Shown here: positions 13,890 to 31,264 of the stretch, in pieces
How the letters are laid out: each line of letters opens with the position of its first letter
How positions within the stretch are numbered: the stretch's first letter is position 1
Assembly (NCBI GenBank): GCA_002718345.1
Contig: PBDA01000017.1
Coordinates: 17,884-81,883, forward strand
Direction: 5' to 3'
Length of the DNA: 64,000 nt
From: Rhodospirillaceae bacterium
GTDB lineage: Bacteria > Pseudomonadota > Gammaproteobacteria > Steroidobacterales > Rariloculaceae
The notes under the pieces: generated by a model
Databases searched by the model: none
What the model was told of the DNA's origin: nothing
Seen by the model: the letters and a program-made list of their open reading frames with translations, nothing else
Translations under genes and position numbers: made by a program

Positions 13890-16166
13890 TTAAAACCGGA
13901 AGGTATAGTTAAATTTTATAGCCAGATCAGCAAGTGTTGATTTAAAGCGATTATTCAATTCAAGATCCTGAAGGTTATGGTTTAAGACAATAATTCCTTC
14001 CTGGCCAGCTTTAGGAATCCAGTGCAGTCTTGTATTTATTCCTACTGTATCTGTGAGATTGTCGTATTGAAGTAGCGTGCTCCAAGACATGGTTGAGGAG
14101 AAAATGATGTCATTTCTTAATTGAAGTAATTCGGTATCAAAATCCCCATAAGGTAGTTGTACATCGTTTACGGTGTAATTGAGAGTCAATTGAAAGTGCA
14201 TAGAAGGGCGCCATCCGATACCCGCGGTTTTTTGTTGTCTATTACCGCTATAGAACTCTCCTGATCTATACCCAAGTGTTCCCCATATTTCACGTACCTG
14301 TCCCGACTCAAGTTTAAATTCGGCTTCATTAAATGAATAGTCGCCAGTGGGGATGACTACCTTATTAGCTCCTTGTGCCCAGATTTCATATGGCTTAATC
14401 AAGGATTCTTTTGTTTCATGAATTCTAATCCAACCTTGATCTCGAGTATGCGATTCAAACTCAAAAGCTCTAAGGGTTAAAACCTGAGTTTGCAGATCAC
14501 CTTTTATGAGATTGATTCGTTCTGCATCCATTCCAAAGTATAGGGTTCGAAAAAATGGATGAGACACGCGAAGGCCATAGCCGGTCTCTAGTGTATGGTC
14601 ACGAATGCCAGAACGACTGACATAGCCTAAAGCAGGGGAGAAGTTTTCCTCAATTTGCTTGACTCCAACTCCACCTCGCCAGCCAAGTCTATTTGGGGCT
14701 GTAAGCCTTAATCCATAGGCACGTTGATCTTCCTCAACACCCTCTGTATTCGATTCTTGGTACCAAGCTTCGCCTTGTAGTGAGCGGTTGTTGGCTAATC
14801 TTGTATTGTTATAGAGAAAATCGAAGCCCATTAATGTGTTATCAAGGTTTGATCTTGGATCACCACTGGTCGCAATAACGCCAACAGCAGATTCTGCTAG
14901 CACATTAGTGGACAGACGAGTAACAAAAATATCGCTGGCGTTAATGTCTCCATATTGTTCCTGCTGTATGGCCAATGCCCCAACATTCCAGCGTCCAATC
15001 CGACCGCTTAACTTCGTGCCAGCACTAAGATCCACAGGCTGTCCATTTGCACTTAATCCGATTCGGCGAGAAAAATAAGGGCGACCATTTTCAAGGTTTG
15101 ATGGTGAGATGGTACTGGTGCCGGTAAGTCCACCTCTTACTCTTCCTCCGATACGTGCATAACGGAACATATCTGAGTCTCTAAGAAAAAACGTACGCTT
15201 TTCCGGAAAGAATAAACTGAAGCGAGTGAGTTCAACCTGACGATCATCAACCTCTGTAGCAGAAAAGTCTGTGTTTAATGTAAGTGCGGCATTGAACGCA
15301 GGGGTAATTTTATAAAACAGATCGAGCGATGGTTCAGTACTGGAGTTATTTGATGAGGGGTTATAGTCCTTGTTTGTTTTTAGAGTGAGGGAAGGAACAA
15401 TATCGAGTCCTCTGCCAACTTGAAGGTCTTCGAACCCGGTGACTTCACCGGCAATACTGGGGTCTTGAATGGAATCCCGAGAGAACCAGCCAATTCGTTC
15501 ATCATTACGGCCAATATTTCGTTGAAAATTAATACCCCAAGTATCGCTACTAGGATCAAAAGACAGGGTTTTGAAGGGAATTTCAATCTCAGCGGTCCAT
15601 CCTGCTTCATCTCTACTTGTAGCGCCATGCCAGATACCATTCCAGTTCCAGTCGGTTCCGGTTGTTTGATAAAACAGGGATTCCATTCGAATCGCATTAG
15701 GGTTTATGAGGAACCGATAGCCTGTACGTTTGTCATTAAAGGGATGAAGATTGATTGAAATGAAATCATCGCCCCATACCATGGCTCCTTGTCTTAGGAC
15801 ATTTGCGTTTATTTCCTCTGCTGCAGAGTCATGCATTCTTGCGCCAATGTAGAGCGCATCATCACCGTAGTAGATACGGATTTCCATTGGCTCGGAGGGC
15901 TCTGTATATTCGAAGGGTATTATTTGATGAAAATCATCTATTAATGTTGCTTGTGTCCAGTCTGCCTCATTAAGTTGCCCATCAACAATAGGCGTCTCAC
16001 CCCGTCCTATGGAAACAGATTTTAGATCTGATTGATTTGGTTCTTCATCTTCTTGGCCTAAAGACAGCTGACAAACGATCAATAAAAATAGAGAAGAGCT
16101 CACAGAAAAGCATTTAGATTTTTTATTTGTTTTCACTTTTTTATTTAGTGAATTTCCCCTAAACAT
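13890..16166 (-). CDS. Outer-membrane protein with N-terminal CBM9-like/DOMON-like domain and large beta-barrel (DUF5916-like), copy 1
   Basis: Signal peptide, DGQLNEADW..F.Q..P..YGDDALYIGARM, WDPSSDTWGINF, and C-terminal ...KFNYTFRF. It is a paralog of 19270..21522. Confidence 0.65.
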   Translation of the reverse strand: MFRGNSLNKKVKTNKKSKCFSVSSSLFLLIVCQLSLGQEDEEPNQSDLKSVSIGRGETPIVDGQLNEADWTQATLIDDFHQIIPFEYTEPSEPMEIRIYYGDDALYIGARMHDSAAEEINANVLRQGAMVWGDDFISINLHPFNDKRTGYRFLINPNAIRMESLFYQTTGTDWNWNGIWHGATSRDEAGWTAEIEIPFKTLSFDPSSDTWGINFQRNIGRNDERIGWFSRDSIQDPSIAGEVTGFEDLQVGRGLDIVPSLTLKTNKDYNPSSNNSSTEPSLDLFYKITPAFNAALTLNTDFSATEVDDRQVELTRFSLFFPEKRTFFLRDSDMFRYARIGGRVRGGLTGTSTISPSNLENGRPYFSRRIGLSANGQPVDLSAGTKLSGRIGRWNVGALAIQQEQYGDINASDIFVTRLSTNVLAESAVGVIATSGDPRSNLDNTLMGFDFLYNNTRLANNRSLQGEAWYQESNTEGVEEDQRAYGLRLTAPNRLGWRGGVGVKQIEENFSPALGYVSRSGIRDHTLETGYGLRVSHPFFRTLYFGMDAERINLIKGDLQTQVLTLRAFEFESHTRDQGWIRIHETKESLIKPYEIWAQGANKVVIPTGDYSFNEAEFKLESGQVREIWGTLGYRSGEFYSGNRQQKTAGIGWRPSMHFQLTLNYTVNDVQLPYGDFDTELLQLRNDIIFSSTMSWSTLLQYDNLTDTVGINTRLHWIPKAGQEGIIVLNHNLQDLELNNRFKSTLADLAIKFNYTFRF

Positions 16167-16200
16167 ACATTTGTTAGTGGTTATTAGGGGTAAAAACTAT

Positions 16201-16881
16201 CTATGTATTTGCCCAAAATCGTAAAAGATTATGGTAGATACCGGCAAGTGTTACTAATGATGGATGTTCAGGGACATCAACTCCTAAATGTTGTATAGCT
16301 TTATCTAATTGAAACAATGTTTCACGTTGAGCGTTATCTCTTACCATGCTTTCAATCCAGAAAAATGCAGCCAAACGAACTCCACTTGTTACAGCTTTTA
16401 TCTGATGGATGCTTGTTCCAGGGTAAAGCACCATATCTCCAGCCGACAGCTTTATAGTTTGTTCCCCAAACGTATCGCGTACAATTAATTCACCGCCTTC
16501 ATAGGTATCAGGGTTACTGAGAAAAAGGGTTGCTGATAAATCAGTACGAATTCTATGCTGGCCTCCAGCCACTGGCCGAATTGCCCCATCTATATGGCCA
16601 CCGTACGATTCACCATCGGTATAGCGATTAAAAAGAGGCGGCAAAACTTTGAGTGGAAGAGCAGCTGCAGTAAAAATAGGATGATTTTGAAGAGCTTTTA
16701 GGATTGTTTCTCCAAGTTTTACAGCAATAGGATCATCATCGGGCAATTGCTGATTATTTTTGACTCCTTGGGATAGGTATCCAGCACTATGGCGCCCATC
16801 TGCCCAAGATGCATTGTTTAGCTTGAGCCGAGCTTCTTCAACTTCATTTGGTGTTAAAACACCTTCTATGCTTATCAGCAT
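16201..16881 (-). CDS. ybiX: Fe(II)/2-oxoglutarate-dependent PKHD-type hydroxylase (YbiX/PiuC family)
   Basis: 226 aa, with MLISIEGVLTP.., HxD-type segment GGHIDGA, DLSATLFL and YPGTSIHQI. It lies 4 nt downstream of the TonB-dependent receptor, as in E. coli fiu-ybiX and Pseudomonas piuA-piuC. Confidence 0.8.
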   Translation of the reverse strand: MLISIEGVLTPNEVEEARLKLNNASWADGRHSAGYLSQGVKNNQQLPDDDPIAVKLGETILKALQNHPIFTAAALPLKVLPPLFNRYTDGESYGGHIDGAIRPVAGGQHRIRTDLSATLFLSNPDTYEGGELIVRDTFGEQTIKLSAGDMVLYPGTSIHQIKAVTSGVRLAAFFWIESMVRDNAQRETLFQLDKAIQHLGVDVPEHPSLVTLAGIYHNLLRFWANT

Positions 16882-16885
16882 GACT

Positions 16886-19147
16886 TTAGAAGATTACATT
16901 GAGCGCTAAAGTTGCTGTGCGACCAGGTCCTGGAACAATGTGCCAAGGGTGTGACTGATCGAAATAATATTCATTAGTTAGGTTGGTGATGTTCATTTTT
17001 ATAGAAATAGTATCTGTCAAAATAAAACGTCCCATGGCATCTACAAGTTGATAGCTTGGCACTGATTTGCCGCTTCCTTTGTTTGTGGCTAATAGTTCTG
17101 AAATATGCCGTGCTCCAATTCCAAAGTCTAGGCGATCGTTGAATTGATAATTAAACCAAAGAGAAAGGGAGTGCTCAGGAGCATTTGCTAATTCTGCACC
17201 AGTAGCAGCTCCTGGAGCTGCTTTTACTACCTCTGTGTCTAAGTAGGTGTATCCTGCTGTCAGGTATAGTCCATTAGAAATCATGCCGTTCATGTCTAAT
17301 GAAAGACCTCTGACCTGATGTTCTCCACCCAGAGTGTTAAAACCAGGGTTATCTGGGTCTGGTACTCGTGCGTTCTTTTTTATGATTTCAAATATGGCAC
17401 CTGCAAAAGAAAGGGCACCTTCATTAAGATCAATTTTTACGCCAGCCTCAAGACTTTCATTTTTCTCTGGGTCCAGTAACTGATTCCCTAAAGCTAGTCC
17501 ACGGCCGCTGGTAAGCAAAGACAAGCTCTGAGCAGATGGATTGAACGATGTGCTGCCAGCTAAATAAACACTGGATTCTAATGTTGGCTTATATACTAAA
17601 GCTGCACGATAACTTCCTTCTTTGTCAGTCTGGTTAAATGTTTCTTTCCCTTCAGATTTTCCATCATTAAAAGGCGTTGCTGGTCCTTTGAATCTTGTTG
17701 CGTTGTAGTCTGTTTCAAACTTGTCCCAACGACCTCCGAGGGTTAATTGCCAATTATCATTTAGTTTGATCGTGTCCAAGACATAAAGAGCAAAGGTTTC
17801 GCCGGTTGTGTCTGATATTACTCTAGGGTCTGTGCTGCCTGTAAAAGGCATTTTAGAGTTTGGGTTTAAAAGATTAGTTCCTGATGCACCTATTCCAAAA
17901 GCAAAGGTTGGTTCTGAAGTTTCTTTAGTAAATTCTATGCCTCCAGCTATAACATGTTCCAAGTTACCGGTTTCAGTTTCCCACGTAACGTTAGCCTGTG
18001 TGGTAAAAAGAGTTTCTTCGCTGTTCCCTAAAAAAACATTTCTAAATATAGATACGTCGTTAAGTGATGCACCAGAAGCAATAGTTTCCGTAATTAGTGG
18101 TTCTGTGATGCGGCTATCACGCTCGTAGTGCGCATATCTGGCTATTGCGTCTAAATTAAGCGTACTACTAAATGTGTGCGCCATATGACCAGTAAAAATG
18201 TCTGCATCTGTTTCCAGAAAGTCACTATCAAAGCCATAAAAGTTTTGACGAGATACCGGAGCAGGTTTCCCGTTAAGCCAGGGTAAACCATAGTCTGGCC
18301 TATCATCTGCCGTCTGTTTCATATAGCTTAAGGTGAACTGTGTGTCTGATTCCAAACCAAACGTTACACTGGGCGCAAATCCGAATCGCTTGGCTTCAGC
18401 TCCATCTCTGTCTGCTATTTCCCCCTGATGTGCCAGAATATTGAATCGGAAAGCTGCTTCGCTTCCCAATAATGAAGCGGGACGTGATATGTCTGCTGTT
18501 GCCCGGACAGTTTCATCTGATCCTAGGTTAACGCTAAAATCGGTTATTGAATCAAGGGTTGGTCTTTTTGACACTTGATTGATGGCACCACCTGTAGAGC
18601 CTCTCCCAAATAAGATTGATGAAGGCCCAAGCATTACTTCGAGTGACTCTAAATTGAATGGATCGCGGGGATAACTTCCAAAGTCTCGCATGCCATCTAA
18701 GTACATATCGTCCCTAGCACTAAATCCTCTAATATTAGGAGCGTTACCTTGCCATGCAAATTCACCTGCCCCAAGGGTGATTCCTGGGATGGCGCGTAGG
18801 GCATCATTTAAGCTATTGAGCCCACGGTCTTCGAGTAGCTCGCGGGACATTGTTTTAACTGTTTGTGGGGTATCTAGAAGACCTTCTGTTAATTTAGATA
18901 GTGAACTTTGATCAGCGCGATATCTTTCTGACTGTCTTTCAACAACTCTAACTTCTTCCATATTCTGGTTTGTGTTTGAAGTTGTGTCCTCATTTTCTGA
19001 GGACTGGGCAATCGCTAAATTCGAAAATGTAAGACTAATTCCTGCGCCAACAAGAGCTTGAGTAACTGCTTGAGCAATGGGAGTCAGAGCCCCAAAATCA
19101 TGCCTAACAACTTCAGAATAATTAACCTTTCTGAGTGATTTTTTCAT
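16886..19147 (-). CDS. fiu: TonB-dependent receptor, catecholate-siderophore (Fiu/PiuA) type
   Basis: Plug motifs DTPQTVKTMSRELLEDRG, IRGFSARDDMYLDGMRD, LEVMLGPSSILFGRGSTGGAINQVSKRP, followed by a long barrel ending ...LALNVIF. Confidence 0.8.
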   Translation of the reverse strand: MKKSLRKVNYSEVVRHDFGALTPIAQAVTQALVGAGISLTFSNLAIAQSSENEDTTSNTNQNMEEVRVVERQSERYRADQSSLSKLTEGLLDTPQTVKTMSRELLEDRGLNSLNDALRAIPGITLGAGEFAWQGNAPNIRGFSARDDMYLDGMRDFGSYPRDPFNLESLEVMLGPSSILFGRGSTGGAINQVSKRPTLDSITDFSVNLGSDETVRATADISRPASLLGSEAAFRFNILAHQGEIADRDGAEAKRFGFAPSVTFGLESDTQFTLSYMKQTADDRPDYGLPWLNGKPAPVSRQNFYGFDSDFLETDADIFTGHMAHTFSSTLNLDAIARYAHYERDSRITEPLITETIASGASLNDVSIFRNVFLGNSEETLFTTQANVTWETETGNLEHVIAGGIEFTKETSEPTFAFGIGASGTNLLNPNSKMPFTGSTDPRVISDTTGETFALYVLDTIKLNDNWQLTLGGRWDKFETDYNATRFKGPATPFNDGKSEGKETFNQTDKEGSYRAALVYKPTLESSVYLAGSTSFNPSAQSLSLLTSGRGLALGNQLLDPEKNESLEAGVKIDLNEGALSFAGAIFEIIKKNARVPDPDNPGFNTLGGEHQVRGLSLDMNGMISNGLYLTAGYTYLDTEVVKAAPGAATGAELANAPEHSLSLWFNYQFNDRLDFGIGARHISELLATNKGSGKSVPSYQLVDAMGRFILTDTISIKMNITNLTNEYYFDQSHPWHIVPGPGRTATLALNVIF

Positions 19148-19184: not shown

Positions 19185-19205
19185 TCCCTTAAGGGATTTT
19201 AAGGG
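19185..19205. promoter_or_regulatory. Palindrome TCCCTTAAGGGA overlapping a 10-bp-spaced direct repeat TTAAGGG in the 122-nt spacer upstream of the receptor gene
   Basis: Read directly: tcccttaaggga at 19185-19196, and ttaaggg at 19189-19195 and 19199-19205. It could be an operator, or a weak hairpin ending the upstream gene. Confidence 0.2.
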
Positions 19206-19269: not shown

Positions 19270-21522
19270 TCAGAAGCGAAAGGTGTAATTAAGTTTTATG
19301 GCAAGATCACTTAAAGTGGATTCAAACCGGTTGTTCAGGTCCATATCTTGAAGATTGTGGTTAAAAACAATAAAAAATTCTTTTCCCGCTTCAGGAATCC
19401 AATGAAGCCTAGAATTTAGTCCCGCTGTTTCGGTGACATTATCGTACTGTATTAACGTAAGCCAAGAGACTTTATTGGAAAAGATTATGTCGGTTCTAAA
19501 TCCAACAAGCCGAGTATTAAAAATGCCATTTGGAAGTTCTACATCATTAAAATCATAGTTAAGTCGAAATTGAAAATGATTGCTTGGACGCCAGCCAATG
19601 GATGTTCCAATTCTTGTGCGCGTTCCACCATAAAAATCCCCGGTTCGATAATTAGCACTTCCCCATATCCTTCTAAAATCACCAGTAGAGAATGATAATT
19701 CTGTTTCATTGAATGCATAGCTATCAGGTGGAACTATTATTTTTTCAGAACCTTTTTTCCAGATCACATAGGGTTCAGTGAGAACTTCTTTAGTAGAATG
19801 GAAACGAAGATGTCCTCTATCACGAAGATGAGACTCTAGTTCTAGCGCGCGAAGGGTAACTACCTGCGATTGTAAACCACCACTAATTAAATCCACTCGA
19901 TGCGCGTCAACAGCACTGTAGACTGTTCTTAAAAACTCTCCACCAACTCGTCGACTGTAGCCAAGCTCAAATGTTTGGTCACGAATACCAGCTCTATTGA
20001 CAAAACCTAGAGCTGGGAAAAAATTTTCTTCGATTTGTTTGACACCAATGCCACCACGCCATCCTAAAACATTTGTGGCACGGATTCGCATGCCATAGGC
20101 GCTTTGGTTTTCATTGATTCCATCGGTTCTTGATTCTTGGTACCAAGCCTCTCCTTGTATCGACTTTCCTCCGGGTAATCTGGTGTTGTTATATAGAAAA
20201 TCAAACCCACCAACACTATTTCCTACGTTGGACCTAGGATCGCCATCTGTGATTAGAATACCGGCAGAAGATTCCTCTAAAACATTTGCTGTTATCCGTC
20301 CGACAAAGATATCACTAGCATGAATGTTCTCATACTGGTCCTGTCTGATAGCAAGTGCTCCCACATTCCAGCGACCTACTCTGCCACTAAGTTTAGCTCC
20401 AGCATCTATATCTACTGGTTGGCCAGCCGAACCTAAACCAATTCTTCTTGAGAAGTATGGCCTACCATTTTCTAAGTCTGGTTGTGAAAAGGAACTAGTC
20501 CCAGTCAGACCGAATCCAAGTCTCCCACCAACTCTGGCATAACGAAAAATATCGGCATCTCTCAAAAAAAATGTACGTTTCTCAGGAAAAAAAAGACTAA
20601 ACCGGGTGAGTTCCAATTGACGGGTATCAACCTCAGTAGCGGAAAAGTCTGTATTCAGAGTGACTGCTCCGTTAAGGGATGGCGTGATCTTATAGAATAG
20701 ATCTAGTGAAGGCTCAGCATTAGTTTCATTTGAAGATATATCAAAGTCCTTTTTCTCCTTTAAGGTTACTGATGGAACAATGTCGATACCTTTGCCTAAT
20801 TGGAGTTGCTCGAAGCCAACGGCCTCACCTGCAATGCTTGGGTCTTGGCTTGAGTTTCTAGAAACCCACCCACTCATTTCACTTATGCGCCCGAGATCTC
20901 TGGTGAAATTAATGCCCCAAGTGTCATTTTGCGGATTGAATGAAAGTGTTTTGAAAGGAATTGATATTTCGGCTACCCATCCAGATTCATTTCTGCTTAC
21001 AGCCCCATACCAAATGCCATTCCAGTTCCAGTCTTGTCCACTAGTGTCATAGAACAGCATTTCCATCCTGACGCCATTAGGGTTAATTTGAAAACGATAG
21101 CCATTTCTTTTGTCATTAAATGGCGCAACAATAACCGACAGATAATCGTCACCCCAAAAATGAGCTCCCTGTCTCAGGGTATTAGCGTTCATAGTCTCTG
21201 GTTGTGAGTCAAAAAGTTTTGCTCCGATGTAAAGCGCATCATCATCGTAAAAAATACGGATCTCAGTATTTTCTGTTGGTGAGTCATACTCAATGGGCCT
21301 TATCTGATGAAGGTCATTAATCATTGCAGCCGATTCCCAAGCTTCTTCATCAAGCTGTCCATCAATCGTTGGAGTTTGGTCACGATTAATAGATACAGTT
21401 TTTGTTTCTTGTTCTGTAGACGGCGTAATCTGGGAGTATGCAAGCCCTGTATAAAGTATTGGCAATAGACTAATAGCGATCATACACAACATTTCAAATG
21501 CTCTTGTGGTGTATTTTTTCAT
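19270..21522 (-). CDS. Outer-membrane protein with CBM9-like/DOMON-like domain and beta-barrel (DUF5916-like), copy 2
   Basis: Collinear with 13890..16166 over the full length, roughly two-thirds identical by eye. Both share FSATEVD.RQ.ELTRFSLFFPEKRTFFLRD and end ...NYTFRF. Confidence 0.65.
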   Translation of the reverse strand: MKKYTTRAFEMLCMIAISLLPILYTGLAYSQITPSTEQETKTVSINRDQTPTIDGQLDEEAWESAAMINDLHQIRPIEYDSPTENTEIRIFYDDDALYIGAKLFDSQPETMNANTLRQGAHFWGDDYLSVIVAPFNDKRNGYRFQINPNGVRMEMLFYDTSGQDWNWNGIWYGAVSRNESGWVAEISIPFKTLSFNPQNDTWGINFTRDLGRISEMSGWVSRNSSQDPSIAGEAVGFEQLQLGKGIDIVPSVTLKEKKDFDISSNETNAEPSLDLFYKITPSLNGAVTLNTDFSATEVDTRQLELTRFSLFFPEKRTFFLRDADIFRYARVGGRLGFGLTGTSSFSQPDLENGRPYFSRRIGLGSAGQPVDIDAGAKLSGRVGRWNVGALAIRQDQYENIHASDIFVGRITANVLEESSAGILITDGDPRSNVGNSVGGFDFLYNNTRLPGGKSIQGEAWYQESRTDGINENQSAYGMRIRATNVLGWRGGIGVKQIEENFFPALGFVNRAGIRDQTFELGYSRRVGGEFLRTVYSAVDAHRVDLISGGLQSQVVTLRALELESHLRDRGHLRFHSTKEVLTEPYVIWKKGSEKIIVPPDSYAFNETELSFSTGDFRRIWGSANYRTGDFYGGTRTRIGTSIGWRPSNHFQFRLNYDFNDVELPNGIFNTRLVGFRTDIIFSNKVSWLTLIQYDNVTETAGLNSRLHWIPEAGKEFFIVFNHNLQDMDLNNRFESTLSDLAIKLNYTFRF

Positions 21523-23293: not shown

Positions 23294-23778
23294 TACTGCT
23301 GATAGGGAATAAATCGACCAGTAGTAATAATCCCCATCCAGAGCGCTAGTCCTAAACCACCAGTGAGTCTAGCGCTAACCGGCGGCATTGGAGCTTGATC
23401 CCATTCCGCAAGATTACGACAAACAAATTTTAGAAATAGGAAGACATTTATACCCGCTAATATCAACATGGCTATCTTTGCTCGAAAAAATATATTGTCG
23501 TATTTATCTACTGGTGATGCATAAAACATTAAAAACCCAGTAATTGTCATTATTGCGAAACCTAACATGTTCCATGAAATGAGACGTTTCATCACCACAG
23601 ATGTTGGTATATACCTCATCATTAAGCCCAAGAGTCTTAAGTCAATAATCAGCGCTGTTCCTCCAAACACAGTTAAAGTGAGCACATGAAGCGTAAGAAT
23701 AAAAAGATACACGTAATGAGATTCGTGAAGTGAAACACTCCACGAAGTCAATGCTAGCCATTCTAGGAAGCTAACCAA
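23281..23778 (-). CDS. 4-TM inner-membrane protein, tandem paralog 1
   Basis: Four hydrophobic segments, with motifs TLHVLTLTVFGGTALIIDLRLLG and TGRFIPY. I could not assign a family. Confidence 0.55.
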   Translation of the reverse strand: MVSFLEWLALTSWSVSLHESHYVYLFILTLHVLTLTVFGGTALIIDLRLLGLMMRYIPTSVVMKRLISWNMLGFAIMTITGFLMFYASPVDKYDNIFFRAKIAMLILAGINVFLFLKFVCRNLAEWDQAPMPPVSARLTGGLGLALWMGIITTGRFIPYQQYWFG

Positions 23779-23879: not shown

Positions 23880-24305
23880 TCAGCGGTTAGGCCGTGGGTT
23901 GCCGTCTGCACCTGGAGCAGATCCCCCCATGAATACCTTTCGTCCATCAAGATATTCAAAGAAAACTGCCACACCTTTGTTTTCACCGCTTTTTGCTTGA
24001 TAAGCAAAAACCCGTATTTCTGATCCCTCGGGCAGAGTGTCTTTGCTAACTCCATTGCGAAATAAGTTAACAGGAGGTCCTCCTTCAAAGCCCCAATTCG
24101 TAACTGTTCCATCTTCGCTAGTAACATCTACCCAGAGCCAGGAATGGGGGTTTGTAAGTTCAACCCTTGTTACTACCCCCTCCATATTGAGAGGTTTGTT
24201 TTCATCATAAGCTGCCGCAAAGGAATGGTGAGCTTGTGTTGGTAAAACCAATAGAAACGACACAGCGCAAATTATCTTCAGGAGTAATGCAATTGTTATT
24301 CTCAT
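23880..24305 (-). CDS. Small secreted HHS/NPH protein (DUF6152-like), stand-alone copy 1
   Basis: MRITIALLLKIICAVSFLLVLPTQA then HHSFAAAYDENKP..VELTNPHSWLWVDV..WGFEGGPPVNL. Size (141 aa) and motifs match my recollection of DUF6152. Confidence 0.7.
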   Translation of the reverse strand: MRITIALLLKIICAVSFLLVLPTQAHHSFAAAYDENKPLNMEGVVTRVELTNPHSWLWVDVTSEDGTVTNWGFEGGPPVNLFRNGVSKDTLPEGSEIRVFAYQAKSGENKGVAVFFEYLDGRKVFMGGSAPGADGNPRPNR

Positions 24306-24319: not shown

Positions 24320-25468
24320 CTACCTTGATTCAATTTTTTGGGCAGCTTGGTACTCTGCTGCACGGGTTCTAGCCCCTCTAAGTACATTAATAATGCCATA
24401 GTTTTGTTCATGGCAGGCGAATTCAAATAGCCAACCAGGAGAATCCATCATTGGCCAAGGGACTTCTATACTCCATGGAGTTTCCCAAGTGCTGGGATCC
24501 GTTAATGTAGCTTCATAGAGTAGAGTTTGATCATCAATTCTTGTAAAGCGTTCTTCTAGCTGTAGTCCTTCGCTAGAGCCATTCCACTTTCGGTTTTTAT
24601 GAAAATTTGTAGTTTCAACAACTAAGGTATTGTTTTCCCAATGACCTCTAGAATCCCCTAAGTAACTTCGAACAGTTTCTGGAGCATGATTGGAACCGTT
24701 TAAATGAAAGATGCGGACATCACTATTGGCTTGCGTAATTAATATCACGTGATTAGGGGTTTGAATGATTTGGGATTGACCTATATTTTGCACAAATGGA
24801 ATCCCCGGCGGGCCTTGATTTCCTTGTATGCAACGTTCATAGAGTCCTCTGGATTCAAGTGTGTGTCGACGAGCTTGGGCTTCATGTCTTGTTTGCCCTT
24901 CAGGCGTAAGTTTTGGCACACGCCCATTCAAAGGATTTGTTATAAGCGAAGTGCGGCGATTGGGCCGTATTGGGCTTTGCCAATTATCCATTCCAAACTC
25001 AGTCCAGTCGTAGTGAACGGTGGCTGGATCTACTGAAGCATCCTGTGTTGCTCGATGCACAAAAGCGGATATTGCTTCTTCCCTAGTATAAAAAGGTTTG
25101 TTTATGTTTTCTTCTGAGCGCTCAAGGGGCGTGTAGGCTACATTTAACCAATAACCGGCGATATCAGGGTCTCCCCAAGAAGTTTTCGAAGTAGGTGAGC
25201 GGGGGGTTGAGGGATCCCAAATTATTTCAGTTGCACTTTCAAGAAAGGCCTCAGCTTCTTCCTGAAAGTAGGCATAGGTTGAGTCAGATGTGTGTGGGGA
25301 AGCTGCTCGCGCTGCCTCAAGGGTTTCTTGTGAACGCTGGTTGATAAGTGCCGAGGGAGGTGGCGTAGTTTGGCTCTCTGCAAGAGTAGTAACAGCTAAA
25401 ACGATTGCTGAGGACACTATTACACGTATTTTTAAGGTTTTTCCTGACAGTAAAATTATTTGCGACAT
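24320..25468 (-). CDS. Secreted family X protein (382 aa)
   Basis: Signal peptide, PDIAGYW, ERCIQGNQGPPGIP, GHWENNTLVVETT, LEERFT..LLYEATLTDPSTWETPW and FEFAC. Confidence 0.6.
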   Translation of the reverse strand: MSQIILLSGKTLKIRVIVSSAIVLAVTTLAESQTTPPPSALINQRSQETLEAARAASPHTSDSTYAYFQEEAEAFLESATEIIWDPSTPRSPTSKTSWGDPDIAGYWLNVAYTPLERSEENINKPFYTREEAISAFVHRATQDASVDPATVHYDWTEFGMDNWQSPIRPNRRTSLITNPLNGRVPKLTPEGQTRHEAQARRHTLESRGLYERCIQGNQGPPGIPFVQNIGQSQIIQTPNHVILITQANSDVRIFHLNGSNHAPETVRSYLGDSRGHWENNTLVVETTNFHKNRKWNGSSEGLQLEERFTRIDDQTLLYEATLTDPSTWETPWSIEVPWPMMDSPGWLFEFACHEQNYGIINVLRGARTRAAEYQAAQKIESR

Positions 25469-25482: not shown

Positions 25483-26367
25483 TTAGGGATCGTTCGATAC
25501 ATCTTCCTCATAAAAACCAAGTGGCTTGTAAAACATGGGTTCTACTATTGGAACGCAATTAAATTCTTTTAGTTCAGCATTCTCCTCTATGTGTTTATAT
25601 AGAATAAAACTCATTTTCCAGGGGCGGGTAAACACATTTGGATCTTCTATAGTTGCTTCATACTTCATGTGGTAAGGGCTGAGAGGCGTCCATCTTTCTG
25701 TAACATGAAGGTCATCGCTGGCAAAATTACCCTCTCGATCTAACCATGTATGCTCATTGAATCCTTTCACATCCACAACTAGGGTATTTCCTTCCCAGTG
25801 TCCGTTAGATGTACCCATCCAAGATGCGTCAAGTGCTGGTCTTTCTTCGTCCATATAAATTGTTCTATAGGCGCCTTTGTACTCATAGACAATAAGTATT
25901 TGATCAGCAGTCTGAAATATCTGAAATGGGTATGGCATATAGTTCGCACGTGGAACACCCGCACGGAAACACAATAGCTCAGGATCACCTGTATCAAATC
26001 TGGTTGGGTCATTTGCAGCAGTTACTACAGCGCGTGTTTCATAATTTCTCTGTTGTTCTGCAACTGCCCATTCTTGGTATGGCAATTCATTTCCTTCAAC
26101 AATTCCATAGCCTGCGCGTCCCGCTCCCCAAGCACCTGACTGCTCAGCGAAGGGGCCAGCCTGAACAGGGTGAGACAAGATATTCCAATTCGCTGTAGTG
26201 AATGATTGCCAGATACCAGATATATCTGGTGTCCCATGTGGGGTACGGGGTGGTGTATATTCCGGAAACAGATCTTGATCGGGTAGCTCTTGCGCTAACC
26301 CTAAAACGCTATAAAACGAAAAAATTACTAGAAAAATAAATCGCTTGTTTAGTCGCAGGTCTTTCAA
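25483..26367 (-). CDS. Secreted family X protein (294 aa)
   Basis: Signal peptide, PDISGIWQ, LLCFRAGVPRANYMPYPFQI, GHWEGNTLVVDV, VTERWT..YEATIEDPNVFTRPW and EFNC. TTG start. Confidence 0.6.
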   Translation of the reverse strand: MKDLRLNKRFIFLVIFSFYSVLGLAQELPDQDLFPEYTPPRTPHGTPDISGIWQSFTTANWNILSHPVQAGPFAEQSGAWGAGRAGYGIVEGNELPYQEWAVAEQQRNYETRAVVTAANDPTRFDTGDPELLCFRAGVPRANYMPYPFQIFQTADQILIVYEYKGAYRTIYMDEERPALDASWMGTSNGHWEGNTLVVDVKGFNEHTWLDREGNFASDDLHVTERWTPLSPYHMKYEATIEDPNVFTRPWKMSFILYKHIEENAELKEFNCVPIVEPMFYKPLGFYEEDVSNDP

Positions 26368-26487: not shown

Positions 26488-27219
26488 CTATTCATTTGTT
26501 TGCGTCATTTCCATGTAAGCATAGCATTCATATTCCAGAATTTGCGCATGGTCTTCTTTTCGTCGATATAACGGCATACGAACTGTCCAGGGTTCCGAAT
26601 AGATTTTTGGGTCCTCAATAGTTGCCGCATAAAGTATGTGGTCCGGTCCGGAAAGGGTATAGCGTTCAGTCACATGGAGGTCTTCACTATGGTAATTTCC
26701 CGAGCGGTCGAACCAAGTTTGATCTGTGAAGTGGATAACATCGACTACCAAAGTATCACCTTCCCAGTGTGCTCGCGAATCTCCCATCCACCATTGAATA
26801 GGGCCTGGCGGATGATCACTGTCTAAATAAATATTGCGAAAAGTATGTATATATTCATACAAGATCGTAACTTGGTTGTTCGTCTGCATTATCTGAAATG
26901 GGTAAGGCATGTAGGTGATCCGCGGGACACCAACCATAAAACACTTTGCTTCAGGGTCCTCAGTTAATCTATTACTAAAATTCTCTTTGCGTTTTTGTAT
27001 TGCATCCTCTCTATAGGGCAGTTTGCCAGTGTCTATATTCCCATGTCCTGCTGGAATGCCCAGTTCAGCAGGATGATCTTCTATGTTCCAAACGGCGCTA
27101 CTAATCGTTTGCCATATACCTCTAAGATCAGGTCGTCCATCTTTCATACGTGGAATCTCGTGGGCCCAGCCCACTACTGAGACTGTAAGAGTCATTACAC
27201 AAAGCACGATTCTGAACAT
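26488..27219 (-). CDS. Secreted family X protein (243 aa, minimal form)
   Basis: Signal peptide, PDLRGIWQ, KCFMVGVPRITYMPYPFQI, AHWEGDTLVVDV, VTERYT..YAATIEDPKIYSEPW and EYEC. An AGGAGA Shine-Dalgarno lies inside the upstream gene. Confidence 0.65.
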   Translation of the reverse strand: MFRIVLCVMTLTVSVVGWAHEIPRMKDGRPDLRGIWQTISSAVWNIEDHPAELGIPAGHGNIDTGKLPYREDAIQKRKENFSNRLTEDPEAKCFMVGVPRITYMPYPFQIMQTNNQVTILYEYIHTFRNIYLDSDHPPGPIQWWMGDSRAHWEGDTLVVDVIHFTDQTWFDRSGNYHSEDLHVTERYTLSGPDHILYAATIEDPKIYSEPWTVRMPLYRRKEDHAQILEYECYAYMEMTQTNE

Positions 27220-27221
27220 CC

Positions 27222-27626
27222 CTATCTTTCTCCTGGACGATTCCCACCAAATAAAGTTCGTCCATCCGGTAACTTTGTCTCACCCCCATACAATTCCTTG
27301 GAGCCATCCCTTGCAGGAAAACCACTAACAGTAATCATAGCTCCTATAGGCAAATCGTCAGCACGCCAACCTCTCCTGAATAGGTTGTTGGCACTACTGA
27401 ACCAGATAGTCCAAATTTCAGTGTTATTTTCATTAAGTCTCTCGACAAACATGCGAGCATGTGGATTTATAAAATCCATTTCTTTTATAGTGGCAGTCAG
27501 CAGGGTCTCAGAATCCATATCAAACCCTGCTGCAATAGAATGGTGGCAGTAAGCATCATTTAAAAACAGCAGATAAAGTCCCGATAGTGCGATTAACCAG
27601 ACTATCGTATGCTTGGTTCTTATCAT
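27222..27626 (-). CDS. Small secreted HHS/NPH protein (DUF6152-like), stand-alone copy 2
   Basis: MIRTKHTIVWLIALSGLYLLFLNDAYC then HHSIAAGFD...FINPHARMFV...WTIWF. ATG at 27626 forms an ATGA overlap with the stop of the upstream gene. Confidence 0.65.
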   Translation of the reverse strand: MIRTKHTIVWLIALSGLYLLFLNDAYCHHSIAAGFDMDSETLLTATIKEMDFINPHARMFVERLNENNTEIWTIWFSSANNLFRRGWRADDLPIGAMITVSGFPARDGSKELYGGETKLPDGRTLFGGNRPGER

Positions 27627-28567
27627 TGCCTTTGCTCCCAAGCTATTTTTAGCTGTCTTGCTTCTGCGCCCGTAATACCCGGGTAAAGCATGTAGCCATT
27701 ATTTAGAAATAGTCTCATTTGTTCCTTATTGTTTTCATAGCATGCTTCCTCCCAGATCTCTGGGTTTTCATCAGCATCTCTCCTGAAAGCAAAAGCAACG
27801 GTAAAAGGCCGTTTATAAACATTTGGATCCTCAAATGTTGCTGAGTAGTGAATTGTATTGTGATCTACCAGAGTCATTCGTTCAGTAATTGTTGCTTCCT
27901 CAGTTATAAAATGCCCTCTTTGGTCTAGTAGGTATTTAGCATTATGGTTTGGGGAATTGATGATTAATGTGTTCCCATCCCAATGACCTCTAGGATCACC
28001 ATTCCACATTAATATTTCAGCAGCATGAGGTCGTCCATCTAGAGGGATAATTCGGTATGGATGGGCAGTCAGTTGTTCTCCTACCATAATTAGGTATTGG
28101 TCATCTTGCTGGAACTGAAACCGACTAGTCATATACATTGTCCCTGCTGGTCCAGACAAAAAGCATGCAGCATTGTGGTGCAAGTAACGCTCTGCATTTT
28201 CTATACTTTTTTCTTTTGCCCAAGGTTGTATGGGGATTTTTCCATCTGGAGGATCTACTATTCCGCTAGTCCCGCCGAAATCATCTGCAGTCACTGGATG
28301 GGCTTCAAAATCTTCAAAAATCCATGCTCGACGTCGCCAATAGCCGCTGAAGTCAGGCCGATTATCTGCAGTTGTGAGCTGGGGCCTCAAGGCGGCTGCT
28401 TTGATTGCGCATGCATGGAAAATTGCATGTTCATTGCTTTGACAAATAGAGTTTTCAAAGCTTCCAAGAGAATTAATTTGACTAGAGACAGGCTGTAAAG
28501 ACAGCAGCAATATAGTAATAACTTGAGAAATTAATGGTATTGAAATTTTTAATTTAAATCGGTCCAT
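27623..28567 (-). CDS. Secreted family X protein (314 aa)
   Basis: Signal peptide, PDFSGYW, AACFLSGPAG, GHWDGNTLIINS, ITERMT..YSATFEDPNVYKRPF and EEAC. Confidence 0.6.
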   Translation of the reverse strand: MDRFKLKISIPLISQVITILLLSLQPVSSQINSLGSFENSICQSNEHAIFHACAIKAAALRPQLTTADNRPDFSGYWRRRAWIFEDFEAHPVTADDFGGTSGIVDPPDGKIPIQPWAKEKSIENAERYLHHNAACFLSGPAGTMYMTSRFQFQQDDQYLIMVGEQLTAHPYRIIPLDGRPHAAEILMWNGDPRGHWDGNTLIINSPNHNAKYLLDQRGHFITEEATITERMTLVDHNTIHYSATFEDPNVYKRPFTVAFAFRRDADENPEIWEEACYENNKEQMRLFLNNGYMLYPGITGAEARQLKIAWEQRQ

Positions 28568-28640: not shown

Positions 28641-29849
28641 TTATTGGCGGTCCTGAATTAATTTAACTTGTTCATTAAAATTATCAGCTACTTCTTCCAT
28701 TGCTTCTATTCGTCTATTGTAATAGGAAGTTAGAAGTGCTGTTTCCTCTTTTCTTAATTCTCCCTCATCGATAAGTTCTGATAGACATTCAAGTTGTATA
28801 TTGGTACTTGCTACAAAATTACGAATCTCGGTCTGACCAATTATCATTTCTTCAATTGATGCTGATCTTCCGTCAGGCATAACTGGTATTGCTTCAGGAG
28901 TGCAGTGACCAGCAATCTCTTGAAGGCTAGGCATCATTGCTTGTGTGGCTTGGTTTTCCTCAGGATCTGGCACTATCGACAAGTATATTTTAAGAGCACT
29001 TGCATACCTAGGGTGAACATCTTTAGCTACACGCAAGTATTCCTCAAGAGAAGCTAGTGCCCTAGTTTCGTTTAAATTAGTTACCGCTGCTTCAGCTTCA
29101 ATAACTAATAGATCTGGGTTCATTGCACCACAGACATTTCTCATTTGCTGCGCCCAGAATAAAACAGCGGTTGAATCACCAGAGTCCAGTGCCGTTTGAA
29201 TTTCTGACCTAATTAAATCGGACCGTTCTGGAGGAGAAATATCACCATAGCGTTCCTCTTCGAGCCGAGTAACAGAATTTATTGAAATAAGCGGGTCAGG
29301 CACATCTGCAGGGAATACTCCACTAGGCCCAGTAGGAAGTTCTGCAATAGCATCAATAACTGAAATGCCTTCAATTACTTGTCCAAAGACAGTGTAACCA
29401 AGTTCTCGTCGAGTGGCATTGAGATCTTCGTTGTCACTTAGATTAATGAAGAATTGTGAAGACGCAGAATCAGGATCACTTGTTCTAGCTGCTGCTATAG
29501 TGCCACGCTCATTCTTGCGCTGATTCCGAGACTCATTTACAACAGGTGTTCTCGGTCTTTTTCCTCTCAAGTCTTTGTCAAAACCACCGCCTTGGACAAC
29601 AAACCCAGCTATAACTCGATGGAAAACTGTTCCGCCGTAAAATCCACGGTCTGTGTAATTAAGAAAATTTGCAACGTGTTGTGGTGCGTCATCATCAAAG
29701 AGTTCAATAACTACTCTTCCTAGGTCTGTACACATTGTTATATTTGTTGCGTTTGCAAAGGAGGCCCCAAAAAACGTCACAAGTGCACACATGTAATGCT
29801 GTCTTAATCTATAAAAAGGCTTTGTCATGTAAGACCTATGTACTGTCAT
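28641..29849 (-). CDS. Secreted cyclophilin-type peptidyl-prolyl isomerase with about 200-aa C-terminal helical extension
   Basis: The PPIase core reads VVIELFDDDAPQHVANFLNY..GFYGGTVFHRVIAGFVVQGGGF..SQFFINL..YTVFGQV. About 200 further residues have no motif I recognise. The true start may be an internal ATG. Confidence 0.75.
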   Translation of the reverse strand: MTVHRSYMTKPFYRLRQHYMCALVTFFGASFANATNITMCTDLGRVVIELFDDDAPQHVANFLNYTDRGFYGGTVFHRVIAGFVVQGGGFDKDLRGKRPRTPVVNESRNQRKNERGTIAAARTSDPDSASSQFFINLSDNEDLNATRRELGYTVFGQVIEGISVIDAIAELPTGPSGVFPADVPDPLISINSVTRLEEERYGDISPPERSDLIRSEIQTALDSGDSTAVLFWAQQMRNVCGAMNPDLLVIEAEAAVTNLNETRALASLEEYLRVAKDVHPRYASALKIYLSIVPDPEENQATQAMMPSLQEIAGHCTPEAIPVMPDGRSASIEEMIIGQTEIRNFVASTNIQLECLSELIDEGELRKEETALLTSYYNRRIEAMEEVADNFNEQVKLIQDRQ

Positions 29850-29869
29850 TTCTTCGTTTTATTTTTTTA

Positions 29870-31264
29870 TTAACTACCAGCTAAGCTATTTTTAAGGGCA
29901 ATTTTTTCTCTTTCTTCAATTAATCCGCGCATCTTTCTTTGATACTCGCGGCTAATAGGGTAACGCCACATTAAGCCAATGACTATTAGGTAAGCTATAA
30001 CCGGCATGCCAACGATTAGGTAACGCAAACGCTGTAGCGCAGTACTAGTATTTTCGGCTCCCATTTCAGGCATAAAATCAAGTATTCCAAGCACTGACAT
30101 GACAATAAAAATTGCTATCCCTGATGCCATTTTGCTAGATGTTTGAAGTAGCGAATAGTAAAGTCCCATTCTTTCTGAGCCACTTTGAATGTGATCATGG
30201 TCACACACGTCTGCCATCATTGCTCTAGGCAAAAATTCATTAGCTGATGAATTAAGCCCTACTAACAAAAAAATGATTGTAGTTAAGAGTATGGCATTTG
30301 GAGGTAGTACTAGAAGTAATAATGAAGTTATAGCTCCAGTAGTCACAGCCATTTGCATTGTATTGTGCTTGTTCCAACGTTCAGACAGCCAAATCCAAAA
30401 AGGGAGCCCTAGAAGACCACCAACCAAAAGAAAAATAAGAATAAATCCTTCACTATCTTCTAGGTTCAAAGTAAAGGCCACAAAGAAAACAAACAGCGCC
30501 TGAACAAAGTAGGTTGAGAATGAAATCATAAAATTTGCTAGTAGCAAGCGTAATAACGGCATATTTTTAAAAACTACACTAGCGCCTTTCTTAAAGCCGA
30601 TATGAGACCGGTTTGCTGTCTTTCTCTCGGGGACGCTTATCAGGCAAAAAATAACAGTTACAGGTAATACGACAAACATAAACCAGCTGATAACTGAGGC
30701 GGCTTCTTCAAGGGAGGGTACATTTTCTTGCAGTTGCATTATGGCCCAGCCACCTCCAATTAGAATGCCACCAATCATTGTCATTGCTTGGAGTAAGCCG
30801 GTTATGCGTGACCTACGATCATAATCACGCGACAATTCAAGAGCCCAAGATGTATGACTAATAGTCCAAGCACTCCACCCTACATACAAAGTGGCAAGCC
30901 ACATAAATAAATAAAGTCCCCCCGCATCTTCTGGCGGGTTGTATACCATGAAAATGGCTAGCATTAGTATTGGAGCTGATAGAGCAAGCCATGGTCTGCG
31001 TCTGCCCCAGCGAGTGCTGTAGCTGTCCATAAATAGCCCCCAAAGCGGTGCGGCAGTCATGTCAACAACTTTTGCAGCAAAAAAAATAGCCCCAACAGCG
31101 GCCCCTACACCTACATGATTAGCATAAAGCGGAGGTAAAAAAACAAAAACGGCGGTTACGAGCATATTTAAACCCAAAGAAGGCAGGGAAAATCCTGTCA
31201 TTCTCAAATTAGTAGCTCGTATTTCGCTCATACCTAAGCATAGTGTGTGTTGGCTGAGAAGCAA
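29870..31264 (-). CDS. MFS transporter of the glycoside-pentoside-hexuronide (GPH) symporter type
   Basis: About 12 hydrophobic segments and a DSYSTRWGRRRPW loop typical of MelB/GPH-type carriers. The start is uncertain (ATG 31264 or 31231). Confidence 0.65.
   Translation of the reverse strand: MLLSQHTLCLGMSEIRATNLRMTGFSLPSLGLNMLVTAVFVFLPPLYANHVGVGAAVGAIFFAAKVVDMTAAPLWGLFMDSYSTRWGRRRPWLALSAPILMLAIFMVYNPPEDAGGLYLFMWLATLYVGWSAWTISHTSWALELSRDYDRRSRITGLLQAMTMIGGILIGGGWAIMQLQENVPSLEEAASVISWFMFVVLPVTVIFCLISVPERKTANRSHIGFKKGASVVFKNMPLLRLLLANFMISFSTYFVQALFVFFVAFTLNLEDSEGFILIFLLVGGLLGLPFWIWLSERWNKHNTMQMAVTTGAITSLLLLVLPPNAILLTTIIFLLVGLNSSANEFLPRAMMADVCDHDHIQSGSERMGLYYSLLQTSSKMASGIAIFIVMSVLGILDFMPEMGAENTSTALQRLRYLIVGMPVIAYLIVIGLMWRYPISREYQRKMRGLIEEREKIALKNSLAGS

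Follow-up and report, generated by a model that had tools for sequence, protein, structure and literature searches.

A Fiu/YbiX-type receptor-dioxygenase pair beside X-DUF6152 trios in a marine gammaproteobacterial envelope gene array

A TonB-dependent receptor (TBDR) and a Fe(II)/2-oxoglutarate dioxygenase form a pair that is broadly co-conserved and syntenic in Proteobacteria (PMC12004947). It is known as Fiu-YbiX in E. coli, PiuA-PiuC in Pseudomonas and Acinetobacter, and CciT-CciO in Caulobacter, where it is under Fur control and needed to acquire iron under chelation stress, no role having yet been assigned to the dioxygenase (PMC12004947). The CciT-CciO pair also affects copper resistance via iron import (PMC12004943). 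Here we analysed a 64-kb stretch of DNA (contig PBDA01000017.1, positions 17,884 to 81,883, called the window below) in which a pair of this type lies within an unbroken minus-strand run of 15 open reading frames (ORFs; 13890-31264), numbered g01 to g15 in the direction of transcription. The region is very probably a clade-conserved neighbourhood of separable envelope modules rather than one 15-gene machine. The full arrangement is conserved only in four related marine gammaproteobacterial lineages, with module-level insertions and deletions (indels), and what is widely conserved is not the 15-gene array but a trio, made of two genes of a family termed X and one DUF6152 gene. Of these components, the receptor-dioxygenase pair has been described before; DUF6152, DUF6644 and DUF5916 are listed in Pfam without having been studied, and family X is not listed. 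Contigs identical or nearly identical to the window come from marine metagenomes, Tara samples among them, and the closest named relatives are metagenome-assembled genomes (MAGs) of uncultured marine Gammaproteobacteria.

Layout of the array

The run is bordered by two plus-strand genes, a sulfatase (12335-13843) and a cupin (31342-32178), and its features are as follows:

29870..31264, minus strand: g01, MFS_2 (GPH-like) inner-membrane permease, about 10-12 transmembrane segments (Pfam, hydrophobic segments)
28641..29849, minus strand: g02, secreted cyclophilin-type peptidyl-prolyl isomerase (PPIase) with a C-terminal extension of about 200 aa (Pfam)
27623..28567, minus strand: g03, family X paralogue X1, opening trio 1 (blastp)
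27222..27641, minus strand: g04, DUF6152 OB-fold protein of trio 1, mature N-terminus HHS (PF19649)
26488..27219, minus strand: g05, family X paralogue X2, third gene of trio 1 (blastp, AlphaFold2 (AF2) model)
25483..26367, minus strand: g06, family X paralogue X3, trio 2 (blastp)
24320..25468, minus strand: g07, family X paralogue X4, trio 2, with a longer N-terminal region (blastp)
23880..24305, minus strand: g08, DUF6152 OB-fold protein of trio 2, mature N-terminus HHS, directly upstream of the DUF6644 pair (PF19649)
23281..23778, minus strand: g09, DUF6644 inner-membrane protein a, four transmembrane segments (PF20349)
22811..23293, minus strand: g10, DUF6644 inner-membrane protein b, four transmembrane segments, gene overlapping g09 (PF20349)
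21537..22580, minus strand: g11, DUF6152-X fusion, behind a 230/257-nt AT-rich gap (PF19649, blastp, AF2 model)
19270..21522, minus strand: g12, CBM9_1+DUF5916 outer-membrane protein a (Pfam, C-terminus ...NYTFRF)
19186..19205, minus strand: terminator-like hairpin in the 122-nt g12-g13 gap (consensus match only)
16886..19147, minus strand: g13, Fiu/PiuA/CciT-type TonB-dependent receptor (Pfam and NCBIfam)
16201..16881, minus strand: g14, YbiX/PiuC/CciO-type Fe(II)/2-oxoglutarate dioxygenase, cytoplasmic (NF003975, PKHD_C)
13890..16166, minus strand: g15, CBM9_1+DUF5916 outer-membrane protein b (Pfam, blastp)

Module A is composed of DUF5916, TBDR, YbiX and DUF5916, that is, the g13-g14 pair bracketed by DUF5916 paralogues. 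Module B (g03-g11), which is new, contains two X-X-DUF6152 trios (g03-g05 and g06-g08), the DUF6644 pair and the DUF6152-X fusion g11. Module C (g01-g02), the MFS permease and the periplasmic cyclophilin, is accessory and lineage-specific.

The minus-strand array of 15 envelope-protein ORFs described in an initial annotation of this DNA was found again, with the same junctions (20, 73, -4, 2, 120, 14, 14, 101, overlap, about 257, 14, 122, 4 and 34 nt). The values -4 (ATGA) and about 257 nt correspond to the start codons picked by gene callers on identical metagenome contigs, where g04 has 134 aa and g11 338 aa; longest-ORF starts give instead a 19-nt overlap and a 230-nt gap, respectively. The likely start of g04 is 27626, with an ATGA overlap with the X1 stop. 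All family calls held in Pfam and NCBIfam, as did all paralogies in blastp. A hydrophobic signal-like N-terminus or multiple transmembrane segments were seen in 14 of the 15 products, YbiX being the exception, as judged by a Kyte-Doolittle heuristic and direct reading only. The statement that the array holds no recognisable catalytic enzyme overlooked the cyclophilin PPIase and the YbiX dioxygenase. Fifteen genes in a row in the same direction are not by themselves unusual in bacteria.

Several transcription units are suggested by the 230- and 122-nt gaps and by the hairpin before g13. The 230-nt gap before g11 (22581-22810) is AT-rich and carries promoter-like hexamers, while the hairpin, terminator-like by consensus only, likely marks a transcription-unit boundary. 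Two metatranscriptomes from samples holding the sequence yielded four small contigs only, located in the receptor gene (17085-17307), in X1, in the cupin gene and at the MFS/cyclophilin junction (29686-29929). The last one bridges g01 and g02. These contigs document low in-situ expression and co-transcription of the MFS and cyclophilin genes, and nothing more.

Conservation in relatives and across phyla

In the four marine gammaproteobacterial lineages, the DUF5916-TBDR-YbiX segment lies beside the DUF6152/DUF6644/fusion block, with 53-94% amino acid identity to the window. A chance juxtaposition conserved in no related genome had been considered in the initial annotation; adjacency is kept in loci L090, L093 and L091/L092, and the DUF5916-TBDR-YbiX order is retained in L090, L092 and L093. 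The L090 locus (GCA_002712225.1; 57-94% identity) reads AsmA, DUF4159, beta-lactamase fold, cupin, then MFS, cyclophilin, X3, X4, DUF6152, DUF6644, DUF6644, fusion, DUF5916, TBDR, YbiX, DUF5916. This locus, from the closest syntenic relative with its upstream part covered, is devoid of the X1-DUF6152-X2 triad (window 27222-28567 vs L090 6224-6366) and carries in addition a tandem ModA-like binding protein gene, placed after the fusion and before DUF5916. L093 (60-89% identity) displays the same order from X4 on, where the analysed locus starts, ModA-like gene included. It also shares the unrelated flanks of the window (sulfatase, PhoD, TPR, DUF481, RarA), the flank with the sulfatase and the PhoD-like phosphatase (window 10036-13843; L093 12302-16091) being 70-80% identical. 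Since this flank is kept as well, part of the conservation in relatives is plain genome synteny.

In L091/L092 (53-84% identity) the order is X1, DUF6152, X2, X3, DUF6152, DUF6644, DUF6644, fusion, fusion', DM13, followed after about 8 kb of other genes by DUF5916, TBDR and YbiX, with an acyl-CoA dehydrogenase instead of the second DUF5916; MFS and cyclophilin are missing. The DM13-domain protein behind the two tandem DUF6152-X fusions (L091 12125-12604; L092 2177-2632) was seen in this one marine lineage. DM13 is a domain mostly mentioned in connection with DOMON domains and electron transfer. In L094, a DUF5916 protein with 54% identity stands alone, without TBDR or YbiX.

The ModA-like protein of the relatives (about 500 aa) is made of two SBP_bac_11 halves, 58% mutually identical, and passes the TIGR01256 modA cut-off. 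Its gene (L090 11056-12552; L093 3056-4573; L091 14015-15532; L092 4035-5552) has no ABC transporter nearby in these relatives and is absent from the whole 64-kb window. Both this gene and the X1-DUF6152-X2 triad were thus gained or lost between the lineages.

Outside the clade, the picture is dominated by the trio. A scan of one genome per species gave at least 596 loci, and the six-frame ORFs of the best 80 were searched with the 15 window proteins. These 80 loci originate from Acidobacteriota (Vicinamibacterales and Bryobacterales, with several copies per genome), Gammaproteobacteria, Gemmatimonadota, Rhodospirillaceae, Acidimicrobiia and Myxococcales MAGs. Of these, 76 had two or more X genes and 52 a DUF6152 gene no more than 2.5 kb from an X gene; 50 combined the two features. 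X1-DUF6152-X2 and DUF6152-X2-X1 are the dominant orders; an X1-type gene precedes DUF6152 in L007, L008, L011, L012, L015, L016, L032, L051 and L063, and trio junctions measure only 0-4 nt in L007, L008 and the window. DUF6644 was found in L014, L071 and L076 and DUF5916 in L028, L043, L068 and L072. A Fiu-like receptor, YbiX, MFS or cyclophilin was never found beside X/DUF6152 in these 80 loci from other genomes.

The X1-DUF6152-X2 triad also occurs alone among unrelated housekeeping genes in L007 and L008. This standalone occurrence, together with its clean presence or absence relative to L090, indicates that it behaves as an insertable unit. A sulfatase-X1 fusion in L006 was rejected as a probable chimeric assembly (contig coverage 2.7x): L006 (1-6927) is 100.000% identical to window 24013-28214 (4,202 bp) and switches in frame inside X1 to a sulfatase ORF that opens with a lipoprotein-like signal.

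The remaining neighbours were clustered and their representatives run on Pfam and NCBIfam, for about 83 loci (the 80 plus L007-L009). TonB-type OMP_b-brl_4 barrels adjoin the trio in 30 of these, and pyrroloquinoline quinone (PQQ) dehydrogenases of the methanol/ethanol and soluble glucose/quinate types are present in 21. A PQQ dehydrogenase directly follows the trio on the same strand in at least seven cases (L011, L015, L026, L028, L062, L070, L081). The link to the trio may be functional or may reflect paralogue abundance. PQQ dehydrogenases divergent from the trio were also observed (L018, L021, L039, L044, L054, L089), and trio-adjoining enzymes from Acidobacteriota and Gammaproteobacteria give sub-threshold 'acido-empty-quinoprotein' matches in addition. 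NHL propellers occur in 13 loci and dihaem cytochromes c in 10; metallo-beta-lactamase (MBL)-fold proteins, Vgb/SGL-type propellers, Amidohydro_2, SDR, multihaem cytochrome c and OmpR-type regulators also recur. Neighbour clusters c2, c4, c5, c7, c10 and c11, without Pfam matches, were set aside as probable antisense ORFs of high-GC genes.

Proteins of the modules

The receptor g13 contains plug and barrel domains and passes the TIGR01783 siderophore receptor cut-off (278.8 bits vs 223.5). Its best equivalog is Fiu (NF007349), with 388.8 bits for an equivalog cut-off of 686, so that g13 scores below the level of Fiu proper. Located 4 nt after it in the same direction, g14 reaches 339.7 bits with NF003975 (cut-off 180), contains PKHD_C and 2OG-FeII_Oxy_3 domains, and an HxD...H motif can be read in its sequence. 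The two genes very probably represent the published Fiu-YbiX/PiuA-PiuC/CciT-CciO iron-acquisition pair, with which they share a siderophore-type TonB receptor, the dioxygenase and the co-directional arrangement. They differ from the published pairs by the absence of a detected Fur box and of a PepSY/PiuB-type partner. They are, moreover, flanked by two DUF5916 proteins and lie beside the X/DUF6152/DUF6644 module, an arrangement undescribed in the literature found. No Fur box with three or fewer mismatches to the E. coli 19-mer was detected in the window, although the host's own Fur motif may differ. By hand alignment, the closest candidate upstream of g13 agrees with it at 12 of 19 positions, which is chance level, as this score class is reached 152 times in the window. 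The g12-g13 intergenic region aligned with three relatives revealed no conserved operator, and no riboswitch or small RNA scored above noise in the array with Rfam.

The two DUF5916 proteins g12 and g15 are 63% identical (blastp). They match CBM9_1 with 48.3 and 39.0 bits (cut-off 23.4) and DUF5916 marginally, with 25.2 and 34.1 bits vs 22.6, over the N-terminal part of the model only; DUF5916 gave nothing meaningful against PDB sequences. Like the receptor, they carry OMP-type C-terminal Phe motifs as judged by a heuristic check, g12 ending in ...NYTFRF. Orthologues of g15 are 84-94% identical in L090 and L093, and none follows YbiX in L092. We take the CBM9-like domains to belong to the broad DOMON-type fold class, which also binds haem.

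When compared to TonB-dependent systems that have their own periplasmic binding protein (FepA-FepB, FhuA-FhuD), the array shows the same clustered layout of an outer-membrane receptor, soluble periplasmic proteins and an inner-membrane component. Unlike them, it contains no cluster-A/ABC-type binding protein, permease or ATPase, and its periplasmic folds, calycin and OB as modelled, are different.

In module C, g01 passes the Pfam MFS_2 cut-off (230 bits) and does not reach that of TIGR00792 gph (165.4 bits vs 231.35); it is retained in L090 and missing in L091. The cyclophilin domain of g02 (Pro_isomerase, residues 37-191, E 2e-42; PpiA-like 168 bits, under the equivalog cut-off) is followed by about 200 C-terminal residues without any family match. 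The protein is 72% identical to its L090 counterpart.

Family X has no Pfam or NCBIfam model for g03, g05, g06 or g07; NCBIfam likewise gave no match for DUF6152, DUF6644 or DUF5916. Among 102 family members, no Pfam match was obtained at E <=1, except for three unrelated single-member matches (E 0.06-1), and none of the 102 matched a lipocalin or FABP model at this threshold. An X profile gave nothing meaningful against PDB sequences, with no match at E <=10. As stated in the initial annotation, neither X nor the proteins with four transmembrane segments thus match a characterised family in Pfam, NCBIfam or PDB sequence searches. The family is large: a profile search over 1.84 billion representatives gave 18,357 clusters at 50% identity with E <=1e-3 and 10,246 with E <=1e-10, and a word-indexed search gave about 8,000 clusters at 90% identity, all 'hypothetical' and without a Pfam domain. 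It is abundant in soil Acidobacteriota and marine Gammaproteobacteria.

The four paralogues X1-X4 match one another with E 1e-15 to 1e-72, and the C-terminal half of g11 also matches X (blastp). X1 and X2 match with E 7e-32, X3 is 41% identical to X2, and X4 matches X1-X3 with E 1e-15 to 1e-19. X2 is the most conserved member, with 63-83% identity to its 119 best database matches. Orthologues of X3 in L090 and L091 are 84% identical, and X4 has orthologues in L090 and L093. The kinds of residue that never vary over all paralogues comprise G, W, P, C, Q, E, T, Y and D; a GxW motif lies on the first strand. Two invariant cysteines, C93 and C232 in X2, may form a disulfide.

The AF2 model of X2 (predicted local distance difference test (pLDDT) 85.9, predicted template modelling score (pTM) 0.82) and that of g11 show one strand, a helical insert (helix-turn-helix) and then nine strands. 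Foldseek matched X in the PDB to FABP/CRABP/CRBP barrels only, with target-normalised TM-scores of 0.5-0.63 and E 1e-3 to 1e-4. X is therefore modelled as a distant, larger, secreted calycin/iLBP-like barrel, the resemblance being at the level of fold and not of family membership. As modelled, it resembles FABP/CRABP and the calycins (bacterial lipocalins, siderocalin-type binders) in the order of strand, helix-turn-helix and nine strands, and in the GxW motif on the first strand. It differs by about 100 additional residues, secretion, the two invariant cysteines and the lack of sequence-level membership among the 102 members searched with Pfam, and in its occurrence as pairs of paralogues accompanied by an OB-fold partner.

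This partner, called HHS module in the initial annotation, is Pfam DUF6152 (PF19649), found in g04 (76.6 bits), g08 (101.6) and the N-terminus of g11 (87.7; cut-off 27). Orthologues of g08 in L090, L091 and L093 are 84-90% identical. In trio 1 of the window, X and DUF6152 genes are translationally coupled by a 4-nt overlap and a 2-nt gap. Motif statistics were drawn from 87 DUF6152-type ORFs of related loci: a His-His pair is present in 79, with an AXA-like signal-peptidase site immediately ahead of it in 74, followed by Ser in 57 and Ala in 16, and an NPH motif places a third His exactly at +28 from the first in 65. The window copies fit this pattern (...YC|HHS, ...TQA|HHS, ...ALS|HHS). A mature N-terminal His-His, which signal-peptide cleavage should expose, with a fixed third His looks like a putative metal site, and the succession of cleavage site, H1-H2 and conserved H29 appears compatible with histidine-brace copper proteins (LPMO, CopC and PmoB-type sites).

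The fusion g11 combines PF19649 at residues 27-111 with a C-terminal half that matches X2 (E 6e-11). Its AF2 model (pLDDT 87.7, pTM 0.81) consists of an OB fold and an FABP-like barrel; for the DUF6152 domain, Foldseek finds OB folds only (LysRS anticodon-binding domain, SSB), and the N-terminal segment is modelled with low confidence. No match to the CopC Pfam model was obtained for DUF6152 at E <=0.1, and the fold matches are to OB, not to an Ig-like beta-sandwich. DUF6152-X fusions form a family of their own, with 332 database clusters.

The inner-membrane pair g09/g10 corresponds to Pfam DUF6644 (PF20349; 60.3 and 64.5 bits, cut-off 27). The pair shares 28% identity and is encoded by overlapping genes. 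Aligned with their homologues, they show a conserved His in transmembrane segment 1, a DLRLLG motif, a Lys and a C-terminal GR. The order DUF6152, DUF6644, DUF6644 recurs in the window, L090, L091, L093 and L014, and the pair itself is conserved in L090, L091, L093, L014 and L076. Homologues give sub-threshold matches to DUF2214 (23.1 and 16.4 bits, E 8e-5 and 9e-3; cut-off 34.1) and to CopD (10.1 bits, E 1.1, near full length; cut-off 32.1), while the window proteins themselves have no DUF2214 or CopD Pfam match, and DUF6644 gave nothing meaningful against PDB sequences. These scores are a hint, not a demonstration, that DUF6644 may be a distantly related CopD-like membrane module.

In CopC and YcnI, which are beta-sandwich proteins, the mature N-terminal His is a metal ligand, and that of DUF6152 may be one too. 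As in CopC-CopD and YcnI-YcnJ, the gene of a small secreted protein (g08) lies directly upstream of that of a polytopic inner-membrane partner (DUF6644). The two arrangements differ on several points: DUF6152 models as an OB fold, not a beta-sandwich, and has no CopC Pfam match; the membrane partner is made of two proteins with four transmembrane segments each, not of the CopD family by score; and the X barrels which accompany DUF6152 have no counterpart in CopCD.

Outside the array, 10 kb beyond its end, the window holds a second fusion unreported in the initial annotation, which scores 48.1 bits with PF19649 and matches g11 at E 1e-21:

2404..3528, minus strand: second DUF6152-X fusion, 374 aa, outside the array (phmmer, PF19649)
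1303..2376, minus strand: NHL-repeat beta-propeller, 357 aa, directly downstream of the second fusion (adjacency, NHL family)

This fusion and NHL pair (1303-3528) recurs in L007. About 2 kb off the array end, a tRNA-Arg gene (anticodon TCG; 11646-11722, plus strand) separates the PhoD-like phosphatase gene from a 164-aa ORF.

Readings of module B

For module B we tentatively propose a complex, probably metal-centred, that captures cargo brought in over the outer membrane and hands it on within the periplasm. A small cargo, probably a metal chelate or a metal with an organic ligand, would enter via either the TonB receptor or DUF5916 proteins. Once in the periplasm, it would be caught by the X barrels, which would hold its organic part, and DUF6152, in tight coupling with the X pair, would take or hold the metal ion at its N-terminal His site. 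Transfer over the inner membrane would fall to the MFS permease or to the DUF6644 pair with its possible distant likeness to DUF2214/CopD, and YbiX would act in the cytoplasm. Module B would thereby serve the Fiu-type route in this clade, whereas in other phyla the trio would serve other outer-membrane importers as well as periplasmic quinoprotein and cytochrome c enzymes.

Several points weigh against this proposal. Synteny in the four lineages may reflect shared ancestry rather than function, the flanks in L093 being conserved too. No copper- or iron-specific genes recur in the X/DUF6152 neighbourhoods, and in the array we found neither a Fur box better than chance nor a riboswitch. TonB-type barrels and quinoproteins are, we believe, large expanded paralogous families in Acidobacteriota, and their adjacency to the trio may partly be chance. 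At the protein level, the fold matches of X are weak (Foldseek E 1e-3 to 1e-4, TM-scores 0.5-0.6), no His is among its invariant residues, so that X itself bears no metal signature, and the link of DUF6644 to DUF2214/CopD sits below threshold. The identity of X2-type proteins (63-83% among the 119 best matches, in related loci from several phyla) is much higher than one would expect of a passive binder, which may hint at an enzyme or at an obligate complex. The literature search returned no paper naming DUF6152, DUF6644 or DUF5916; a lanthanide/XoxF paper mentions small hypothetical proteins near xoxF3, with no link to DUF6152, DUF6644, DUF5916 or X.

One of two readings offered in the initial annotation saw in the 15 genes one dedicated Fe/Cu capture system or redox relay feeding a catecholate-type receptor, with fiu-ybiX as its core. 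The co-directional genes with their many short junctions, the whole order in L090 and L093 (and most of it in L091/L092), the His-His of DUF6152 and the tie made by CciT/CciO between iron uptake and copper resistance (PMC12004943) are all consistent with such a system. It appears unlikely nevertheless, because the 80 X/DUF6152 loci from other genomes never include its supposed core, nor the MFS or cyclophilin. Furthermore, the X1-DUF6152-X2 triad is missing from L090 and found on its own elsewhere, the ModA-like gene is itself an indel relative to the window, and DUF5916 can occur without TBDR/YbiX (54% identity in L094). The gaps of 230 and 122 nt and the terminator-like hairpin between g12 and g13 suggest several units, and no Fur box was found. 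The metal part of that annotation receives some support from the mature N-terminal His-His and none from context, with no Fur box, riboswitch or copper-specific neighbour found. Its other suggestion, the uptake of a glycoside or polymer with CBM9-like domains binding the glycan and a GPH symporter importing the product, seems very improbable to us. It was built on the CBM9_1 matches of g12 and g15 and the MFS_2/GPH-like permease, to which the flanking sulfatase (12335-13843) could be added. However, the permease stays under the GPH cut-off, is missing from L091 and does not travel with the module. Neither the array nor any related locus contains a glycoside hydrolase, a SusD-like protein or a sugar kinase, and the receptor, which passes TIGR01783, is of siderophore type. 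The CBM9-like domain, moreover, presumably belongs to the broader DOMON-type fold, whose members also bind haem.

The trio could alternatively have no role with metals and act as a periplasmic carrier or presentation complex for poorly soluble organics (alcohols, lactones, aromatics, lipids), feeding PQQ dehydrogenases, cytochromes c, lactonase-like propellers and hydrolases, the adjacency to fiu-ybiX being inherited synteny. The FABP-like topology of X (strand, helix-turn-helix, nine strands), the same-strand PQQ dehydrogenases behind the trio in the seven loci cited above, the recurrent cytochrome c, NHL/SGL propeller, MBL, Amidohydro_2 and SDR neighbours, the fusion and NHL pair of the window and the MFS_2 type of the permease would fit this role. 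We consider it rather doubtful: it leaves unexplained both the near-invariant His-His...His29 of mature DUF6152 and the DUF6644 membrane pair, the 64-kb window contains no PQQ enzyme, and the conserved residues of the X barrel are largely polar. These polar residues, with the high identity of X2-type subunits in several phyla, the fixed spacing of the invariant His1-His2-His29, the tight translational coupling of the three genes and the redox neighbours (PQQ dehydrogenases, cytochrome c, DM13), would rather suit an enzyme, in which a histidine-brace-like centre of DUF6152, holding Cu or another metal, would dock onto the X barrels and oxidise a small molecule held there, with electrons coming from neighbouring quinoproteins or cytochromes c. 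This purely inferential idea is more improbable still. A full-text search returned no paper joining 'histidine brace', 'OB-fold' and 'periplasmic', we know of no histidine-brace protein with an OB fold, copper-handling neighbours are absent, and the N-terminal segment of DUF6152, where the site would lie, is of low confidence in the model.

A further, more ambitious reading is quite unlikely as it stands. The trio would be an unrecognised and very widespread periplasmic metalloprotein complex of a new class, with a histidine-brace-like His-His/His29 centre on an OB-fold subunit facing ligands held in FABP-like barrels, performing metal-dependent redox or transfer chemistry together with TonB importers and quinoproteins, and supplying in the marine clade the periplasm-to-cytoplasm steps of the Fiu/YbiX route. 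No description of the trio architecture was found in the literature searched.

Taken together, these results indicate that the framing as a 17-kb single system was overstated, while the region is large, coherent and experimentally tractable. Family X is among the larger protein families without a model or a name, and its partnership with DUF6152 defines a concrete, expressible putative complex. If the proposed hand-off mechanism is true, it would add novel periplasmic components to TonB-linked uptake; should the enzyme reading hold instead, the trio would belong to a new category altogether. The PQQ dehydrogenase link in Acidobacteriota may bear on the supply of substrate, cofactor or metal to the expanded quinoprotein families. 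The handling of Fiu/PiuA/CciT cargo after the outer membrane and the role of YbiX/PiuC/CciO are clinically relevant via cefiderocol uptake (PMC12004947), and this marine clade places candidate periplasmic and inner-membrane components right beside the Fiu-YbiX pair.

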